Source of the DNA: Bacilli bacterium
GTDB lineage: Bacteria > Bacillota_I > Bacilli_A > RF39 > UBA660
NCBI GenBank assembly: GCA_017441065.1
Contig: JAFSAI010000044.1
Span: 1-61,291 of the forward strand
Length of the DNA stretch: 61,291 nucleotides
Reading direction: 5' to 3'
Within the stretch, counting starts at the first letter, position 1, and every line of letters starts with the position of its first letter. Shown in pieces: positions 15,533 to 44,514 of the stretch. The position numbers and the translations under genes are program-made. The notes beneath the pieces were generated by a model. The model was not told the DNA's origin. It saw only the letters and a program-made list of their open reading frames with translations, and did not search any database.

Positions 15533-17485
15533 TTGAAAGCTTTAAAATTTTTTTCTAAACTTTGTATTTTCAGTTTTGTATCTTTTATTATTTGTTATAT
15601 TGGCATAAATATTTATGCAATGATTATACCTAATTTAAATATTACTAATAATGGAACATATTATTTATTTGATAATAAAGATACCTTAGTATATCAAGGA
15701 AGTAGTACTAGTTCATGGGTGGATTTAAAAGACATTGATGAAGATCTTATAAATGCTGTTATAGCTATTGAAGACAAAAAATTTTATAATCATTTTGGGT
15801 TTGATATCTTGAGAATTGGTAAAGCAATGATTACAAATATTCAAACTGGACATATTGTACAAGGTGCTTCAACAATTACACAACAATTAGTAAAAAATTT
15901 GTATTTAGAATTTGATAAAACTTGGGAAAGAAAAATTAAAGAAGCTTTTTTAACAATTATTACAGAATTACAATATAATAAAGAAGAAATACTAGAAGCT
16001 TATTTAAATACAATTAATTATGGAAATGGCAACTATGGAGTAAGCAATGCCAGTAAATACTATTTTAATAAAGATGTTAGTAATTTATCTCTTGAAGAAG
16101 CTATAATACTTGCAGGTATTCCTAAAAGTCCAAATAAATATAATCCTGTTTCTAACAAAGAAGAATCATTAAAAAGAGCGTCTATCGTTGCTAAAGCATT
16201 ATTAAATAATGAATTTATTAATAATGATACTTATAATAATTTAAATTTTAATAATATTGAAATTTATGGTAAAAATGATAAAAATAATTTACAAATGCTT
16301 ATGTATTATCAAGATGCTGTTTATAAAGAGTTAGAAAGTTTAGGTATTAGTAAAGAAACATTAGAAACTGGTGGACTTAAAGTTTATACAAACTTAGATA
16401 TTGAAAAACAAAGCGCTTTAGAAAAGAATATTTTAAATACTATAACTCAAGATAAAGAATTACAAGTAGCAAGTGTTATTGTTGATCCTGAGACAGGAAA
16501 AATAGAAGCTTTAACTGGTGGTATTGATTATGGTACAAGTCAGTATAATCGCGCTACTGAATCCAAAAGACAAGTTGGTTCTACAATGAAACCATTTTTA
16601 TATTATGCAGCTTTAGAAAATAACTTAACAGCATCATCTAAGTTTAAAAGCGAATATACAATATTTAATATTAACAATAAAGAATCTTATTCTCCAACAA
16701 ACTATAATGATAAATATGCTAATAAAGATATTACTATGGCTGCTGCTATTGCATTTTCTGATAATATATATGCTGTTAAAACTAATTTATTTTTGGGTGT
16801 TGATAGATTAGTAGATACTGCTAAGACTGTTGGAATTAAAGAAAATTTGAGTGCTGTACCATCACTTGCATTAGGTACAGGTGAAATTAATATTTTAGAT
16901 TATGCTACTGGATATACTACTCTAGCAAGTGGTGGTTATAAGAAAGATTTATACTTTATTAGAAAAATTGAAGATAAAGATGGAAATGTTATTTATACAA
17001 AAGAAAACAAAAAAAGTTTAGTACTAAATCCTAATTACGTTTATATCCTAAATGAATTATTAGCTAACACTTCTAGTAGTGCTTTTAAAGACTATACTAG
17101 TGCAACTGCCAGTACAATTGCTAGCAAATTAAGTAGAAAGTATTCTATAAAAACGGGAACTACTGCAAGCGACTATTGGACTGTTGGATATAATAAAGAT
17201 GATTTAATGTTAATATGGATTGGTTATGATAATAATCGAGAATTTACAAAAAGTTATGGTTATATGACAAAAAATATTTGGGCAGATACTATGGAAGAAA
17301 TCCAATCAGATATTTCTAATAATTGGTATGAAACTCCAGATAACGTAGTAGGTGTTATTCTAGATTCTGTTACTGGAGAGGTTACCAATAATGAAGAAAG
17401 GGCTGTAGTATATTATTACTTAAAAGGTAGCGAACCATTAATTAGTAGTGCATCTACTATAGATAATGAAAAAAAGAAGAACTAG
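15533..17485 (+). CDS. Class A penicillin-binding protein (PbpG/YwhE-like)
   Basis: EDKKFY.H.G, GASTITQQL, RKIKE, SxxK (STMK), SDN, KTG. Confidence 0.93.
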   Translation: MKALKFFSKLCIFSFVSFIICYIGINIYAMIIPNLNITNNGTYYLFDNKDTLVYQGSSTSSWVDLKDIDEDLINAVIAIEDKKFYNHFGFDILRIGKAMITNIQTGHIVQGASTITQQLVKNLYLEFDKTWERKIKEAFLTIITELQYNKEEILEAYLNTINYGNGNYGVSNASKYYFNKDVSNLSLEEAIILAGIPKSPNKYNPVSNKEESLKRASIVAKALLNNEFINNDTYNNLNFNNIEIYGKNDKNNLQMLMYYQDAVYKELESLGISKETLETGGLKVYTNLDIEKQSALEKNILNTITQDKELQVASVIVDPETGKIEALTGGIDYGTSQYNRATESKRQVGSTMKPFLYYAALENNLTASSKFKSEYTIFNINNKESYSPTNYNDKYANKDITMAAAIAFSDNIYAVKTNLFLGVDRLVDTAKTVGIKENLSAVPSLALGTGEINILDYATGYTTLASGGYKKDLYFIRKIEDKDGNVIYTKENKKSLVLNPNYVYILNELLANTSSSAFKDYTSATASTIASKLSRKYSIKTGTTASDYWTVGYNKDDLMLIWIGYDNNREFTKSYGYMTKNIWADTMEEIQSDISNNWYETPDNVVGVILDSVTGEVTNNEERAVVYYYLKGSEPLISSASTIDNEKKKN

Positions 17486-17498
17486 TCTTCTTTTTTTA
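17473..17498. terminator. Bidirectional terminator-like hairpin at the convergent pbp/noc stop overlap
   Basis: AAAAAGAAGA-actag-TCTTCTTTTT. Confidence 0.5.
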
Positions 17499-18486
17499 TT
17501 GTAATTGTATATTTTAATTCTTCTGTATTTTCATCTTTAATAACATTGATTTGATAATTATTATTTGTTAACTCACTAGCTAATTTATCCAAAAGATTTG
17601 TAGCTATACTCATATCTTTTTTATTATTCTCCACTGGTGCTAAAAAATCCAACATTTCTATTTCTTCTACCGGACTTGTAACTACAGTTTCTTCAATACT
17701 CATATTAGCTGATTCATCTTCTAAATAATTAAAGAATTTATTAGGAATAGATGAACTACTAGTATTTTTATTTGTAGGTATTATATCTTCAAATTGAGGA
17801 ACTGGAGGAATTTCAACAACCGGTGTAACATTTTCTACTTTTGGTGGCACTTCTGTAATTGGAATTTCCACTTTTTTATCATCCTTTTTTCTTCCTTTTA
17901 ATCTTTTATCTAATTCTCTTACTGTTAATCTTTCTTCAATAATTGTTTCTAACCACTTTTCTTGTTCTTCTAAATCATCTACTTGTAATAGACTTCTAGC
18001 ATGCCTTTCAGAAATTTTACCTTCCATTAAAGCATTTTGAACACCATTAGCTAACGATAATAGACGTAGTTTATTTGAAATTGCTGATTGGCTTAAACCC
18101 ATTTTTTTAGCTAACTCTTCTTGAGTTAAATATCCTTTATCAAGAAGTGCTTTATAAGATTTTGCTTCTTCTATCGAAGATAAGTCTCTTCTTTGAACAT
18201 TTTCTACTATTGCAACTTCCGCACTTTTTTGATCATCTAAAGCTGATATAATAGCAGGAACAGATGTTAATCCTGCTAACTTTGAAGCTTTATATCTTCT
18301 TTCTCCAGCAATAATTTCGTATTTATCTCCTAAGCGTCTTAAAACTAGGGGTTGAATAATCCCATGTTCTTTTATTGAAGCAGCTAATTCTTTTAATCCA
18401 TTTTCGTCAAAATTTAATCTTGGTTGAAAACGATTAGGAATAATATCTTCAATTGGCACATTTAAAACTTGTGATTCTGTATTCAC
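17482..18486 (-). CDS. noc: Noc-type ParB-family CTPase / DNA-binding protein
   Basis: IPNRFQPR, GERR box, Noc-type HTH (SQSAISNKLRLL...ERHAR), directly after rsmG. Confidence 0.8.
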   Translation of the reverse strand: MNTESQVLNVPIEDIIPNRFQPRLNFDENGLKELAASIKEHGIIQPLVLRRLGDKYEIIAGERRYKASKLAGLTSVPAIISALDDQKSAEVAIVENVQRRDLSSIEEAKSYKALLDKGYLTQEELAKKMGLSQSAISNKLRLLSLANGVQNALMEGKISERHARSLLQVDDLEEQEKWLETIIEERLTVRELDKRLKGRKKDDKKVEIPITEVPPKVENVTPVVEIPPVPQFEDIIPTNKNTSSSSIPNKFFNYLEDESANMSIEETVVTSPVEEIEMLDFLAPVENNKKDMSIATNLLDKLASELTNNNYQINVIKDENTEELKYTITIKKED

Positions 18487-18525: not shown

Positions 18526-19242
18526 TTATTTAGAATTTTTTTTCAATGGCTTTTTGATTATTTTGTCATACGGTCTTAAAAGTTTTACGTCTGTGCTTTT
18601 TTCTTTTTTTATTACAATAATATTTCTTAATCCAGAATTATTATATAGATTAAAAGTAATTCTATTAATAATCTTAGAATCAAGTATTTCAATAGTACTA
18701 ATTGAATCTTCTAAAGAATCGTCCATATTTCCTTTTAAAGCAATAAATAATCCATCAACTTTTACAAGAGGGATTGCTAATTCTGCCAAAACTCTTAAAT
18801 TTGCTACAGCTCTAGACGTTACTATATCAAATTTATTTAAGTTGTTTTTGGAAAAATTTTCAACTCTATCATTTACAACATCTACATTTAAAGATAATTT
18901 TTTTGAAAGTTCTATTAAAAATTTTGTCTTCTTGTTATTAGAATCTATTAATGTAATATTTAATTGAGGAAAAAATATTTTAAGTACCATTCCAGGAAAA
19001 CCAGCACCACTACCAATATCTACAAGACTATTATACCTACTTAAATCAACACTTTTTACAATAGTTAAAGAGTCATAAAAATGTTTTAGATAAATTTCTT
19101 CTGGTTCTTTTATTGCAGTTAAATTTGTATGACTATTATACTCAATTAGATAATTCATATAAATATCTAACTTATTTAAATAATCATCTTTTACTTCTAT
19201 ATTTAATTTTCTTAATTCTTCTATAAATGTATCTTTATTCAT
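18526..19242 (-). CDS. rsmG: 16S rRNA m7G methyltransferase
   Basis: NLTAI, HFYDSL, DIGSGAGFPG, SRAVA. Confidence 0.97.
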   Translation of the reverse strand: MNKDTFIEELRKLNIEVKDDYLNKLDIYMNYLIEYNSHTNLTAIKEPEEIYLKHFYDSLTIVKSVDLSRYNSLVDIGSGAGFPGMVLKIFFPQLNITLIDSNNKKTKFLIELSKKLSLNVDVVNDRVENFSKNNLNKFDIVTSRAVANLRVLAELAIPLVKVDGLFIALKGNMDDSLEDSISTIEILDSKIINRITFNLYNNSGLRNIIVIKKEKSTDVKLLRPYDKIIKKPLKKNSK

Positions 19243-24963: not shown

Positions 24964-25042
24964 ATTTTTTAAATTTTTCTTGTAATAAAAAATCATTTAA
25001 GTTAAAATGAATTTGGGATATATTTGATTGTGGGGTGAGGTA

Positions 25043-26398
25043 TTGAAAACACAAGAAATTTTTAAACAATTTTTGAGTGAAATAGCAGAAACTGTAAGTC
25101 CAAGCACATATTCTGTGTGGTTTAATGATCTTGAACTTGTGAATATGGATGATAAAGAACTTGTTATTAAAGTACCTCTTCCAGTACATAAAAAAATATT
25201 AAGAACAACTTATATAGATTTATTTGATGAAACAATTTTTTCATTGACTGGTATTAATTACTCTTTTAAATTTGTAACCGAAGATGAACTTGAAGAAATA
25301 AAGGAAGTTACTAATATAATACCTGAAGAAGTTCATGAAAAAACAGTAGAATGGAATACTAATTTAAATCCAAATTTAAATTTTGATAACTATGTTGTTG
25401 GAGAATCAAACAGACTTGCTTTTATATCAGCGATGAACGTAGCTCAGTCACCTGGAACCATACGTAATCCTTTATTTATATATGGTAGAAGTGGAATAGG
25501 TAAGACTCATTTAATGCATGCAATAGGTAATTATATTACTGAACATTCTAATAAAAAGGTATTATATACAACGAGTGATGATTTTAAAAATGAATATGTT
25601 GAAATATCTAAATTAGAACGAGGGCAAGCATCAATTGAGTATGCTAAACAATTTAAAAATAAATATCGTGGAGTAGATGTACTGATTGTTGATGATATAC
25701 AATTCTTAGTTGGTGCTGAACTAACACAGCAAGAGTTTTTCCACACATTTGAGGCGTTACATCAAGCTAATAAACAAATTATAATATCTAGTGATAAGAG
25801 TCCTGATGATTTAAAGAAAATCGAAGAAAGGTTACGAAGTAGATTTACTTGGGGACTTCCAGTTGATATTTACCCACCGGACTTTGAACTTAGATGTGAA
25901 ATAATTAAACAAAAACTATCAAATACAAGTATTAAAAATAAAGTAAATAGAGATGTTATTGAATATATTGCCAATGCTTGTCCAAATGATGTTAGACAAA
26001 TAGAGGGAACAATTAATAGATTACTAGCTTATACAGCGATGTATGCTCCAGATATTATTACACTTGATTTTACTATAGAAGCTATAAAAGATTACGTTAA
26101 TACTAACGTTTATCAAGAAAATACAATATCACATATTCAAAAAGTTGTTGCAGATTTCTTTAAAATAACAGTAGAAGACTTAAAAAGTAAAAGAAGAAGC
26201 AATAATATAGCGAAACCAAGACATATAGCTATGTATCTATGTAGAATAGAAACTGATGAAAACTTAGCAAAAATTGGTTTAGAATTTGGTGGTAGAGATC
26301 ATTCAACTGTAGTTGCAAGTTGTGATAAAATAAAAAATGATTTAAAGAATAATACTAATCTTGATAATATGTTAAAAGAAATCAAATCAAAGTTATAA
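25043..26398 (+). CDS. dnaA: Chromosomal replication initiator DnaA
   Basis: NPLFIYG..GIGKTHL, DDIQF, RLRSRF, GGRDHSTV; TTG start after GAGG. Confidence 0.99.
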   Translation: MKTQEIFKQFLSEIAETVSPSTYSVWFNDLELVNMDDKELVIKVPLPVHKKILRTTYIDLFDETIFSLTGINYSFKFVTEDELEEIKEVTNIIPEEVHEKTVEWNTNLNPNLNFDNYVVGESNRLAFISAMNVAQSPGTIRNPLFIYGRSGIGKTHLMHAIGNYITEHSNKKVLYTTSDDFKNEYVEISKLERGQASIEYAKQFKNKYRGVDVLIVDDIQFLVGAELTQQEFFHTFEALHQANKQIIISSDKSPDDLKKIEERLRSRFTWGLPVDIYPPDFELRCEIIKQKLSNTSIKNKVNRDVIEYIANACPNDVRQIEGTINRLLAYTAMYAPDIITLDFTIEAIKDYVNTNVYQENTISHIQKVVADFFKITVEDLKSKRRSNNIAKPRHIAMYLCRIETDENLAKIGLEFGGRDHSTVVASCDKIKNDLKNNTNLDNMLKEIKSKL

Positions 26399-27689: not shown

Positions 27690-27699
27690 GTGAAAAAAT

Positions 27700-27713
27700 A
27701 TTTCCCGGGAAAT
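27700..27713. promoter_or_regulatory. Noc-binding sequence (NBS)
   Basis: Perfect ATTTCCCGGGAAAT palindrome. Confidence 0.85.
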
Positions 27714-27772
27714 ATTTTGACAATTTTTTTAAACTTTTTATGTTATAGTAGGCCATATTCAGGAGGATTATT

Positions 27773-28219
27773 GTGGAAAACTATATAATTAATAACAAAA
27801 CTATAGCAATATTAAAAAATAATAATAAGACAATTATTTATGATGTTGATAACATACGAGTTATTAACAAAAATATAAAGAGAATATTAGATGAAAATTG
27901 TAGTTTTTATGGTAGTAGTTTAAGCGGGAGAAAGAAAAGTGCTAAAAATATATTAAATATTCATTATAAAGTCCCAGTTGTAGTAAAAGAAGATGTTATT
28001 TTATTACAAGTTAATAACATTAGAAACAAAGAATGTTTATTTTTAGTGTTAAATAAAATTGTTGATTATAAATTAGAAAATCAAAAATTAAAAATAATAT
28101 GTATTAACAAACAAGTATTTTTAATTAATATATCAAAAAATAGTTTCGAAAAAATGTTAATTAATTCTATTAAATTAAATAACATTTTAAAATGGCAAAA
28201 ATGTGAGAATTTTGTTTAA
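27773..28219 (+). CDS. comK: ComK-family competence transcription factor (short)
   Basis: YIIN..TIAI, ILDENCSFYGSSLSGRK, YKVPVV match the ComK pattern; AGGAGG RBS. Confidence 0.8.
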   Translation: MENYIINNKTIAILKNNNKTIIYDVDNIRVINKNIKRILDENCSFYGSSLSGRKKSAKNILNIHYKVPVVVKEDVILLQVNNIRNKECLFLVLNKIVDYKLENQKLKIICINKQVFLINISKNSFEKMLINSIKLNNILKWQKCENFV

Positions 28220-31338: not shown

Positions 31339-33783
31339 ATGGATAAAGATAAATTAACAGTAAATAATATTGTAGATGAAATTGAAAAATCCTTTTTAGA
31401 TTATTCCATGAGTGTAATTGTATCTCGTGCTTTACCAGATTTAAGAGACGGTTTAAAACCTGTTCATAGAAGAATTTTATGGTCAATGTATGAGTCTGGT
31501 TATACTCCAGATAAACCACACAAAAAATCAGCTCGTATAGTTGGGGATGTTATGGGTAAATATCACCCACATGGAGATTCAAGTATATATGAAGCAATGG
31601 TTCGTATGGCTCAAGATTTTAGCTATAGAAATGTTTTAGTAGATGGTCACGGAAACTTTGGTAATATTGCTGGAGCTGGAGCTGCAGCTATGCGTTATAC
31701 AGAATCAAGACTTGCTAAAATTTCTTTAGAATTATTAAGAGATATTAACAAAGATACAGTAAATTTCATTCCAAACTTTGATGAATCTGAAAAAGAACCT
31801 GAAATATTGCCTTCTAGATTTCCTAATATTCTTGTTAATGGAACAATGGGAATTGCCGTAGGTATGGCTACAAATATACCTCCACATAATTTAGGAGAAG
31901 TAATTGATGGATGTGTAGCGTATATTGATAATCCGGATATAGATGTTGATGGATTAATGCAACATATTAAAGGTCCAGATTTTCCAACTGGTGGTTTAAT
32001 ATTAGGTAATAGTGGTATTAAAAAGGCTTATGAAACAGGTCGTGGTAGTATTACTATTAGAAGTAAAGCGACTATTGAAGAAAAAGATGGTAAACATTAC
32101 ATAATTGTAGATGAAGTTCCATATGGTGTAAATGTTTCTGATTTAAAAAATAAAGTTGCAGAACTTGTACATAATAAGGTAATTGAAGGAATTGCGGATT
32201 ATCATACAGACTTAAAAAATGGTATTAAAATTACTATAACTTTAAAGAAAGATGCTAATCCACAAGTTGTTCTTAACAATTTGTATAAACACACTCAATT
32301 TCAAGTAAATTACGGAATTATATTCCTAATGATAGATAATAAGGTACCTAGAACTTTAGGTTTAAAAGATATAATCTCTAAATACATTAATTATCAAGAA
32401 GAAGTTATTATAAGACGTACTAGATTTGAATTAGATAAAGCAGAAAAAAGAGTTCATATTCTAGAAGGCTATAAGATTGCTTTAGACAACATAGATGAAG
32501 TTATTAAAATTATTAAAGAATCAGAAACAGATTTATTAGCTAAAGAAAAACTAATGTCAAAATTTGGATTTAGTGAAATTCAAGCTGATAGTATTTTAGA
32601 ATTAAAATTACGTCGATTAACAGGTCTAGAACGAAATAAAATCGAAGAAGAATTAAAAGAATTACTTGCTAAAATTCAAGATTATAGAGCAATTCTTGCT
32701 TCTAGAGAAAGAATTTTGGAAATAATAAAAACAGAATTACTAGAAATTAAAGATAAATACGGTGATGATCGTCGTACTAAAATTGATATGACTGCAGTTG
32801 AATACATTGAAGATGAATCTTTAATTCCTGAAGAAGATGTTATGGTTGTGTTAACTAATAAGGGCTATATTAAGAGAACAACAAATGATACATTTAAAGT
32901 TCAAAATCGAGGAGGTGTTGGTGTTAAAGGTTTAACAACAAACGATGAAGATTATGTTGAACATTTAATTAACTTATCAACTCATGATTATATTATGTTC
33001 TTTACTAATAAAGGTAAAGTTTACCGTATAAAAGGTTATGAAATACCCGAATTTAGTCGTCAATCTAAAGGAATACCAGTAATTAATTTACTTCAAATAG
33101 AAAAAGATGAAAGAATTAATTCAGTTGTTAAAATCAATAAAAATGATGAATATAAATACTTATTATTCGCCACTAAAAAAGGTGTTGTTAAAAAGACTTT
33201 ATTAACTGAATTTGAAAATATTAGAACATCTGGTAAATTATGTATTAGTTTAAATGAAAATGATGAATTATTAGATGTTAAAAAGACTAATGGCGACAAT
33301 ATTATCCTGTTAGGTAGTGATAATGGTAGAATGGTAAAATTTGATGAGAATGAAATCAGAGCCATGGGTAGAACTGCTACTGGTGTAAGAGGAATTAACC
33401 TAGAAGGTGGAAATTGTATTTGTTGTGAAGTTGTTAATGACGATTCAACAATATTATTAGTTACAGAAAAAGGTTACGGAAAACGAACAGAAGTTCGTGA
33501 ATTCAGACAAACAAAACGTGGAAGTAAAGGTGTTTTAGCTCTTAATATCACAGAAAAGAATGGAACTTTGGTATCTGCTAAGTTAGTAGAAAATGATAAG
33601 GATGTAATAATCATGAGTAATGCTGGTATTACAATAAAACTACCAGTTGATCAAATTTCTTTATTAGGAAGAGTTACACAAGGACTTAGATTAATCTCAT
33701 TAAGAGATAATCAAACTGTTGCAACAATTAGTGTTGTTGATAAAATTGAAGTTGATTCAGAGGAATCAAGTTCTGAAAAATAA
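31339..33783 (+). CDS. gyrA: DNA gyrase subunit A
   Basis: [18 protein letters not shown], GyrA-box-like QNRGGVG. Confidence 0.98.
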
Positions 33784-33796
33784 TAAATAAAAAAAT

Positions 33797-33810
33797 ATTT
33801 CCCAGGAAAT
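33797..33810. promoter_or_regulatory. NBS (one mismatch) embedded in the gyrA terminator-like hairpin
   Basis: ATTTCCCAGGAAAT with extended A/T inverted flanks. Confidence 0.75.
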
Positions 33811-33879
33811 ATTTTTTTTATTTGTATTAAACAATTTTTCTAAAGGCATCAATATTTTTATTTTAAAACACAGGAAATT

Positions 33880-33893
33880 ATTTCCCGGGAAAT
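33880..33893. promoter_or_regulatory. NBS
   Basis: ATTTCCCGGGAAAT. Confidence 0.85.
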
Positions 33894-33909
33894 AATTTTG
33901 AGTGTTGAA

Positions 33910-33925
33910 AGTTTCACGTGAAACA
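33910..33925. promoter_or_regulatory. parS site
   Basis: AGTTTCACGTGAAACA (15/16 match to TGTTTCACGTGAAACA). Confidence 0.9.
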
Positions 33926-34239
33926 TTTTTTATGTTGAAAACTTATGTCTTTTTAACAAAATTATTAAAAATTGCCGGCAAAATAAAAAATTTATTAATA
34001 AACCAATTATTTATTTTGAATAAAATAAACATTAAAGATAAAAAATATGTTTGTGAAAATCTTACTAGATATGGCCTTAAATCGCTGGTGATTCATCGCA
34101 AAGATGAAGAATTGTTTGTTTTTGCATTTTTATTTTTGAAAAAACAAAGAAATCCTTTATTTTTCTTAAATAGATAAATTATCCTATTACAACAATTAAA
34201 TATGAGTGTTTAAAACGAAACTAATTATTTTAAATAAAT

Positions 34240-34253
34240 ATTTCCCGGGAAAT
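34240..34253. promoter_or_regulatory. NBS
   Basis: ATTTCCCGGGAAAT. Confidence 0.85.
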
Positions 34254-34274
34254 AAAAAATGTTGAAAATTATGA

Positions 34275-34290
34275 TGTTTCACGTGAAACT
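34275..34290. promoter_or_regulatory. parS site
   Basis: TGTTTCACGTGAAACT (15/16 match). Confidence 0.9.
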
Positions 34291-34348
34291 AATTCAAAAA
34301 CATAAAAATAAGCTTATTTTGATGTCAAAAAACAAAAAATGGATAATT

Positions 34349-34362
34349 ATTTCCCGGGAAAT
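34349..34362. promoter_or_regulatory. NBS
   Basis: ATTTCCCGGGAAAT. Confidence 0.85.
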
Positions 34363-34408
34363 ATCTAAATGAATTGAATTATAAAAACAAATATGCTATT
34401 ATTTTTAT

Positions 34409-34479
34409 GCACAACAAATATATCGTAAACTGGTCAGAGTTGGAAGACAGCAGCCACATCGTTCACTATTTGTGTGTGC
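34409..34479 (+). ncRNA. ffs: Small (4.5S-type) SRP RNA
   Basis: Domain IV GGTCAGAGTT-GGAA-GACAGCAGCC within a GCAC..CAAATA/TATTTG..GTGC closing stem, then a T-run; promoter TTGAAT-17-TATTAT (34374-34402); near tadA-dnaX. Confidence 0.85.
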
Positions 34480-34499
34480 TTTTTTTATGAGGTTATATT

Positions 34500-44286: not shown

Positions 44287-44323
44287 TAAAAAAAACAACT
44301 TGTGCTAAACTAAATTTAATTAA

Positions 44324-44514
44324 CGGAGAATAAGCATAAAAATTGTGAAATTTTAAAGAGAGTTAATGGTTGGTGTAAATTAACAAAGGAAGCAATCTAG
44401 TATGGGCTTAGGAGTTAAATCGGTGATGATCGTTAAAACTAAGAGTGTATGATTAATTTCATAAATAAAGGTGGTACCGCGGATATATCCGTCCTTTGTT
44501 TATGAAATTTTTTT
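44324..44514 (+). promoter_or_regulatory. T-box leader, probable Met specifier
   Basis: AGAGA and GGTGTAA stem I motifs, ATG at 44402-44404 in the specifier position, T-box AAAGGTGGTACCGCG, 3' strand CCGTCCTTT. Confidence 0.9.

Follow-up and report, generated by a model that had tools for sequence, protein, structure and literature searches.

Noc is the model for nucleoid occlusion by DNA–membrane tethering and for a cytidine triphosphate (CTP) switch controlling a membrane helix, and the locus described here raises the question of what a protein of this lineage could do once that helix is missing. The gene concerned, a noc-type member of the ParB family, lies on contig JAFSAI010000044.1 of assembly GCA_017441065.1, from a Bacilli bacterium (GTDB lineage Bacillota_I, Bacilli_A, RF39, UBA660). 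Positions 1 to 61,291 of this contig, referred to below as the window, were analysed together with the rest of the source genome (1.21 Mb, 25.9% GC, 44 contigs, 95% complete). A sequence-only reading of the window had proposed a ParB protein of Noc specificity without the N-terminal helix, which could not occlude cell division in the canonical way. The results presented below place the protein in a helix-less clade of the Noc lineage, whose predicted binding sites in this genome all lie beside the replication origin, and they point tentatively to a long acidic linker as the output part of the molecule.

Noc identity of the ParB-family protein

The gene and the parts of its product are as follows.

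17482..18486 (stop codon included), minus strand: noc-type ParB-family gene, 334 aa, GTG start (open reading frame (ORF), Pfam, profile and structure-chain matches, tree)
18193..18471, minus strand: ParB N-terminal (CTP-binding) domain, residues 6-98 (Pfam ParB_N, E 1.9e-33)
17890..18186, minus strand: helix-turn-helix (HTH) DNA-binding domain, residues 101-199, with Q133, K139, S144 and R161 (Pfam HTH_ParB, E 9.6e-33)
17623..17874, minus strand: acidic Pro/Glu-rich disordered linker, residues 205-288 (alignment, AlphaFold2, composition)
17701..17748, minus strand: linker island 1 (FF motif), residues 247-262, IPNKFFNYLEDESANM (conservation, hydrophobic moment)
17644..17667, minus strand: linker island 2, residues 274-281, EEIEMLDF (conservation)
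17485..17622, minus strand: C-terminal domain (CTD), residues 289-334, a helix and two strands (predicted local distance difference test (pLDDT) 82-88; hhalign against the Noc CTD)

Both CTP motifs, G61 E62 R63 R64 (GERR, 61-64) and E95 N96 Q98 R99 (ENxQR, 95-99), are invariant in 23 sequences, and the closest solved structures are the Noc chains 7ng0, 7nfu and 7ol9 (E 3e-54 to 3e-50), which rank ahead of those of Spo0J/ParB. The top NCBIfam model was nucleoid_noc (TIGR04285), with 270.7 bits against a cut-off of 315; the curated full-length score was not reached, since the alignment covers no more than profile positions 1-200 of 255, and the cut-off is reached in none of the 21 genomes of the source family, the source genome included. 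The N-terminal and HTH core of 75 ParB/Noc rows (source genome, related metagenome-assembled genomes (MAGs) and a class-level sample) was used for a tree, built by a quick method without bootstrap and with some partial Spo0J rows and some long branches. In this tree, Spo0J and Noc are split with a support of 100 in the Shimodaira–Hasegawa-like approximate likelihood ratio test (SH-aLRT), and the protein falls into the Noc half, within a 22-row long-linker clade (SH-aLRT 99). The sister of this clade, with weak support (SH-aLRT 84), consists of short Noc proteins from family f5 and Erysipelotrichaceae.

The DNA specificity predicted for the protein agrees with this placement. The HTH stretch GLSQSAISNKLRLLSLANGVQNALMEGKISERHAR holds Q, K, S and R at the four specificity positions, as aligned to the Noc chains, so that all three Noc-type residues named in the sequence-only reading (Q, K and R) were found and the fourth position is a Ser. 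Thus, Q133-K139-S144-R161 corresponds to three of the four Noc residues, with Ser and no Lys at position 184, where residues other than Lys are common: among the best 150 cluster representatives, N occurs in 96, S in 19 and T in 10. The Noc-binding site (NBS) is described as specified by Q173 and R201, given Lys at 179 or 184 (Jalal 2020, PMC7383237), and Q-K-S-R carries the combination named in that rule (Q173, R201, Lys at 179 and/or 184). Judged by these features, the gene product is a Noc-lineage protein of the ParB family, and it is predicted, very probably correctly, to bind the NBS.

The AlphaFold2 model, based on a 142-row alignment, has a mean pLDDT of 74, and its N-terminal and HTH domains are modelled with confidence; between residues 205 and 288 the chain is disordered (pLDDT mostly <50) apart from a short helix at 254-257, and in this monomer the linker islands dock on neither domain with any confidence. 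The last 46 residues match the canonical Noc CTD when the CTDs of the clade are compared with 30 Noc CTDs by hhalign (probability 93.8%, E 1.7e-7, 46 columns). The C-terminal domain is accordingly homologous to that of Noc, and the insert is an expanded linker between the DNA-binding and dimerization domains. Residues 205-290 contain 16 D+E against 6 K+R, together with 11 Pro counted by eye. The low-complexity insert of about 80 aa with NKFFNYL, as described earlier from the letters, is therefore real: it is an 84-aa linker in which NKFFNYL occupies residues 249-255.

Absence of the N-terminal helix

The protein, read from the minus-strand ORF, starts with MNTESQV, and the codons directly 5' of its GTG start are, in frame, ATT, TTT and TGA. 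If this TGA were read as Trp, the frame would reach a TAA seven codons higher with no ATG, GTG or TTG in between, so an N-terminal extension is excluded under the standard code, as had been stated from the TGA three codons upstream, and under genetic code 4 as well. In the alignment to B. subtilis Noc (7ol9), residue 4 falls on residue 27, which leaves about 23 N-terminal residues of Noc without a counterpart. Only 16 residues stand ahead of the ParB box, the N-terminal amphipathic helix of Noc is not among them, and the first four 11-residue N-terminal windows have hydrophobic moments of 0.23-0.27.

The same is seen in 74 related loci from named MAGs, mostly labelled uncultured Bacilli, two of them Candidatus Onthocola (Bacilli incertae sedis), in which the stop-to-stop frame leaves no space for a helix. 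Moreover, at most 22 residues precede the ParB box in 147 of the best 150 cluster representatives. The helix recorded as missing in the sequence-only reading is thus missing indeed, as the upstream stops, the alignment to 7ol9 and the 74 loci agree, but it is not a peculiarity of a single gene, since it is also lacking in these representatives and in canonical-length Noc of two other families. More than 120 full-length metagenome homologues (319-424 aa, 53-99% identity) were collected, the best 150 cluster representatives range from 227 to 982 aa, and linker lengths in the clade lie between 12 and 735 residues. In a 200-genome class-level sample, the long form and a Spo0J are both present in all 20 other genera of the source family. 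As far as sequences tell, the absence of the helix and the long linker are common to a large clade of uncultured gut Bacilli.

The N-termini of canonical Noc were compared within the same 200-genome sample. A hydrophobic N-terminal peptide is retained in three families, as MGLFDFLG.. (4/4), as an MFN[IL]F-type peptide (7/8) and as an MN[IL]F-type peptide (most of 12). At the same time, Noc of normal length without a helix, with 13-16 residues before the box, was found in family f23 (four proteins), family f5 (two proteins) and an Erysipelotrichaceae genome, which means that helix loss is wider than the long-linker clade. These proteins of 252-272 aa are encoded at L102, L109, L110 and L112 (f23), L111 and L113 (f5), and L080:3992-4756. 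They contradict the generalization of Adams 2015, where an N-terminal amphipathic helix was predicted in all the Noc homologues examined and was necessary for function. In a further family, f24, the full Noc profile (2-255) lies inside frames of 681, 377 and 372 aa (G104:C11:115091-115861, G129:C12:2775-3536 and G078:C41:18936-19697), and these possibly represent a different type of Noc, extended or fused.

Predicted binding sites beside the replication origin

The 16-mer TATTTCCCGGGAAATA, which is the NBS of the Noc crystal and CTP studies, was used as a strict search consensus. The sites found in this way, all of them unstranded consensus matches, and the genes around them are listed below, with parS denoting the ParB sites.

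25028-26398: dnaA, followed by dnaN, the ComK-family ORF, recF, gyrB, gyrA (ends at 33783), the signal recognition particle (SRP) RNA gene, tadA and dnaX
27699..27714: NBS, perfect 16 bp, between dnaN and the ComK-family ORF
27773-28219, plus strand: ComK-family ORF, 148 aa, between dnaN and recF (Pfam PF06338, E 8.9e-20)
33796..33811: NBS, one mismatch (CCCAGG), first of the array behind gyrA
33879..33894: NBS, perfect, 31 bp from the next parS
33910..33925: parS, perfect 14-bp core, one mismatch in the 16-mer
34239..34254: NBS, perfect, 36 bp from the next parS
34275..34290: parS, perfect 14-bp core, one mismatch in the 16-mer
34348..34363: NBS, perfect, 40 bp upstream of the SRP RNA gene
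34403-34488, plus strand: small SRP RNA gene directly after the NBS/parS array (Rfam)

The whole genome holds four perfect NBS and one with a single mismatch, and all five lie within the window, where shuffling yields a mean of 0.05 matches and five matches were reached in 0 of 100 shuffles. Relaxing the search to the 14-mer with at most two mismatches added just two further matches genome-wide. All five NBS are located 1.3-8 kb downstream of dnaA: four of them, with both parS, occupy the 620-bp gap from gyrA to the SRP RNA gene, and the fifth stands just after dnaN. The many NBS spread over the origin-proximal half or two-thirds of the chromosome that are characteristic of Noc were not found by this consensus matching, which yields candidate sites. 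A 91-aa ORF at 33902-34177 (plus strand) inside the array has no Pfam or NCBIfam match and begins within a parS; it is probably not a gene.

The layout is kept in the genus. Among 24 congeneric genomes, 23 have one to seven NBS matches (at most one mismatch; reversed-pattern control, 0-1), and parS is present in 23 of the 24. For the 16 genomes with both site types among the matches listed, every parS (43/43) has an NBS within 451 bp, 22 of the 43 within 100 bp; a parS–NBS pair 30-33 bp apart occurs in 8 of the 16, and the sites of the array contig span at most 9.7 kb. The intergenic NBS between dnaN and the ComK-like gene is kept in all three relatives examined, with the same ORF arrangement, and two relatives have an additional NBS after recR. 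More distant long-linker genomes have one to four NBS-like sites, which in two of these genomes fall inside a stretch of about 25 kb that also holds noc. In complete genomes with canonical-length Noc, the matches are scattered over megabases (eight in G054, six in G136). The NBS of B. subtilis are likewise described as scattered, and in S. aureus Noc occupies 41 loci across the origin-proximal half and spreads over 8-10 kb at each of them (PMC5540599).

A separate Spo0J, predicted to load at the parS sites, is present as well. Contig C7 carries a gene pair for Soj (261 aa) and Spo0J (296 aa, with an LGKGLE-type peptide at the N-terminus), and the noc-type protein as a sole, substitute or dual-purpose ParB was rejected on that ground. 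The remark in the sequence-only reading that no soj or spo0J follows noc is right for the locus and wrong for the genome, and the suggestion built on it, a second segregation or SMC-loading ParB, is not supported, since the search for ParB paralogs brought up this separate, normal pair. The Spo0J gene (C7:72545-73264; locus L004:1447-2337, minus strand) encodes Ser at specificity position 201 (R-L-K-S), and 17 Spo0J of the family have S (7), A (1) or G (9) there. According to Jalal 2020, G201 is absolutely conserved in extant ParB, and the dual parS/NBS binders of a mutational scan mostly carry T or S at this position; the family Spo0J with Ser at 201 might thus tolerate the NBS.

The linker islands and the proposed output of the clamp

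Alignment of 23 homologues (63-89% identity) showed that the linker is hypervariable and unalignable apart from IPNKFFN[FY]LEDExxNM and EEIE[ML]LDF. Two near-invariant islands in a hypervariable linker are a pattern beyond chance for an insert. Conservation of at least 90% in 142 sequences was found for N249, F251, F252, N253, L255, E256, E258, N261 and M262 of the first island and for E277 and D280 of the second. In many of the more distant members the FF island is represented by variants (N[KRT]FFN..), in some cases by two copies; other subclades are devoid of it and have retained an EIxxxDF-like island alone. A six-frame pattern scan of the genome found the FF island in the noc gene alone; one EEIEMLDF-like match inside another ORF is taken as chance. 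Compared by eye with the consensus motifs, the islands fit a beta-clamp-binding motif, an FtsZ C-terminal peptide or a ParA-stimulating peptide in no register, and these identities were rejected.

From what was computed (family membership, NBS-type residues, presence and clustering of NBS, motif conservation, absence of the helix), the protein probably binds the NBS of its own genome, spreads from them and is restricted to the origin. The mechanism that we favour is the following. A CTP-dependent DNA clamp of the Noc lineage, having lost its N-terminal membrane helix, would load at the five NBS downstream of dnaA, four of which are interleaved with two parS, the loading sites of the separate Spo0J. 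With all five sites adjoining oriC, only the origin region could be covered, and the nucleoprotein complex would be confined to it with no chromosome-wide spread. Output would be provided via the two conserved islands of the acidic disordered linker, and the FF island (IPNKFFN[FY]LEDE) would be the membrane-binding helix, relocated from the N-terminus to the linker and acting weakly and multivalently. With many such clamps on origin DNA, the origin domain would be tethered to the membrane, which may serve to position the origin and/or to hold the division ring away from origins not yet segregated. The decisive step, in which the FF island itself would make weak, multivalent contact with the membrane and turn the protein into an origin–membrane tether, is assigned a probability of about 0.38.

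A relocated motif had already been suggested from the letters, and the suggestion gains from how strictly the NKFFN[FY]L island is conserved and from its hydrophobic moment over 11 residues, which at 0.578 exceeds that of every other window in the linker. Moments of 0.53-0.54 were obtained for the N-terminal peptides of relatives with an N-terminal extension, and an aromatic core is common to the FF island and to the peptides MGLFDFLG.., MFNIFSR.. and MNIFS.. of these relatives.

Several observations weigh against a membrane tether confined to the origin. Windows within folded helices exceed the moment of the FF island, so the moment is consistent with membrane binding and does not discriminate, and the AlphaFold2 pLDDT at the island is low (about 50-58). 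The island is followed directly by E-D-E, residues 245-262 have a net charge of -2, and the linkers of the clade are net negative in 249 of 250 cases (median -20); negative charge added to the Noc helix abolished membrane association (Adams 2015). The polar positions N249, N253, E256, E258 and N261 are conserved as strongly as the hydrophobic ones, which suits a specific protein interface no less than a lipid-binding face. Only 46 of the best 150 cluster representatives match the strict FF pattern, and some subclades are devoid of the island, so that it is not a universal effector of the clade. Concerning the sites, degenerate NBS elsewhere would escape the strict consensus; in the spacing analysis, 52 matches of the NBS search and 50 of the parS search lie beyond those listed, and the off-array NBS matches G023 C45, G016 C47 and G006 C32 were excluded from the count. 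Finally, one complete f23 genome has a helix-less Noc and yet scattered NBS-like sites, so that the loss of the helix does not strictly go with clustering at the origin.

The strongest competing explanation keeps the origin-restricted Noc clamp and takes the FF and EEIEMLDF islands for short linear motifs that recruit a protein partner and no lipid. It is a tentative but serious contender: near-invariant polar and hydrophobic positions within a hypervariable acidic linker are the usual signature of a peptide–protein interface, EEIEMLDF-like islands survive in subclades without the FF island, and a species-specific Noc partner has been argued from failed cross-complementation (Pang 2017). Candidates would be FtsZ, FtsA, SepF, DivIVA and GpsB, or Soj, Spo0J, DnaA and DnaN. 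FtsZ, a 141-aa DivIVA-domain protein (C37), a GpsB-like protein (C31) and SMC (C34) are present in the genome beside the Soj–Spo0J pair, and MinD was not found above the cut-off in this 95%-complete genome, the sole match being Soj with 92 bits. This explanation is weakened by the occurrence of the FF island in no other ORF of the genome, which leaves no shared-motif clue to a hub, by the dissimilarity of the islands to a clamp-binding motif or the FtsZ C-terminal peptide noted above, and by the report of Adams 2015, in which no partner of B. subtilis Noc was found.

An unlikely alternative is a second origin-proximal clamp without any output to the envelope or to a partner, whose acidic linker does no more than modulate the entrapment of DNA or function as a spacer or a mimic of DNA, and which serves local DNA organization or insulation, or a KorB-like control of the adjacent promoters (comK-like gene, SRP RNA). 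The end of the NBS at 27699-27714 is 3 bp short of a promoter-like -35 ahead of the ComK-family ORF, and the NBS at 34348-34363 ends 11 bp before a promoter-like site ending at the SRP RNA start; however, promoter-like matches occur at chance frequency (8 against 6.9 expected, and 2 against 1.4). The retention of the dnaN/comK-like intergenic NBS in all three relatives examined suits this alternative, as does the range of linker lengths, 12 to 735 residues, expected of a spacer, but a pure spacer leaves the two near-invariant islands unexplained, and several NBS interleaved with parS look more like a loading platform than an operator. Bulk-chromosome occlusion of the canonical kind, retained via degenerate NBS missed by the consensus and another membrane route, is highly improbable: the protein is a Noc-clade member with NBS-type residues and published NBS sets include degenerate sites, but it has no N-terminal helix, just two further 14-mers (at most two mismatches) occur in 1.21 Mb, and the perfect sites cluster at the same place across the genus.

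With no helix and no distributed sites, which are two independent grounds, nucleoid occlusion across the whole chromosome, as in B. subtilis, is unlikely. The doubt about canonical occlusion expressed in the sequence-only reading is thus upheld, mainly since there are only five NBS, all beside oriC.

The favoured origin-restricted clamp can also be cast, as a possible but rather doubtful extension, as one half of a composite centromere. Throughout the large clade of gut Bacilli, Spo0J and the helix-less Noc would be loaded as paralogous CTP clamps from paired parS and NBS and spread over the same origin DNA, with Spo0J providing the Soj and SMC functions and the linker motifs of Noc providing origin anchoring or origin-specific licensing of division, with no chromosome-wide occlusion.

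Gene neighbourhood

The genes on either side of noc are given here.

18526..19242, minus strand: rsmG (gidB), the gene before noc in the canonical origin cluster (cluster in PMC8136486)
15533..17485, plus strand: PBP1A gene, convergent, next after noc, with a 4-bp overlap

The order on the minus strand is yidC-jag-mnmE-mnmG-rsmG-noc, and noc therefore sits directly downstream of rsmG in the origin cluster, which is the synteny of the Noc family. No ParA- or ParB-like gene stands after noc at the locus, where the next gene is that of PBP1A. Elsewhere in the window, a T-box leader was detected at 44317-44499 (plus strand) by Rfam.

Relation to known systems and significance

The nearest known system is Noc (YyaA) of B. 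subtilis and Geobacillus thermoleovorans (PDB 7ol9, 7nfu, 7ng0, 6y93; TIGR04285). The protein of the gut Bacilli shares with it GERR, ENxQR, the Q173/K179/R201-type HTH and the CTD, as well as the position of the gene directly after rsmG in the yidC-jag-mnmE-mnmG-rsmG cluster, and its genome carries sites identical to the published 16-bp NBS. In contrast, Noc has the N-terminal amphipathic helix and the alpha-2 helix, both absent here, whereas the protein of the gut Bacilli has the 84-aa acidic linker with two islands and Ser at 184. The NBS of Noc are scattered, against a small group here that stands among parS at the origin, and soj-spo0J is not adjacent. With Spo0J, or chromosomal ParB, the protein has in common the fold, the CTP motifs and loading sites near oriC, here beside the ParB sites. 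It differs from Spo0J in standing on the opposite side of the SH-aLRT 100 split, in having Q and R rather than R and G/S at 173 and 201, in the lack of an N-terminal ParA-stimulating peptide of the LG+GL type, which the Spo0J of the same genome keeps, and in having no adjacent parA.

The helix-less Noc of canonical length from Erysipelotrichaceae, f5 and f23 resembles the protein in belonging to the Noc clade and in its Q-K-x-R residues and 13-16 residues before the ParB box. It differs in its length of 252-272 aa, with a normal short linker and no FF island, and in f23 (one complete genome) also in the scattered sites; the NBS search of the Erysipelotrichaceae genome with a helix-less Noc gave 0 matches. 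A functional analogy, valid insofar as the membrane hypothesis holds, may be drawn with RicO of S. aureus (bioRxiv 10.64898/2026.03.06.710092), a binder of origin sites with an amphipathic helix that is not N-terminal, which anchors origins to the membrane; the comparison is at the level of the abstract, which contains no description of a ParB type. A literature search, in which subscription journals were thinly covered, gave no paper on a helix-less Noc or on interleaved NBS–parS arrays.

In the clade as a whole, the DNA specificity of Noc and its exact binding site appear to have been kept, while the helix was dropped, an acidic linker with conserved motifs was inserted and the sites were confined to the origin beside parS. 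If this is borne out, these bacteria would offer a natural system for the roles of Noc besides occlusion (cf. replication control in S. aureus, PMC5540599), for two ParB-type clamps sharing one stretch of DNA, and for the movement of effector motifs within the ParB family. If the composite centromere proves true, the textbook mechanism of Noc, with its N-terminal helix and scattered NBS, would be one of several uses to which Noc is put.

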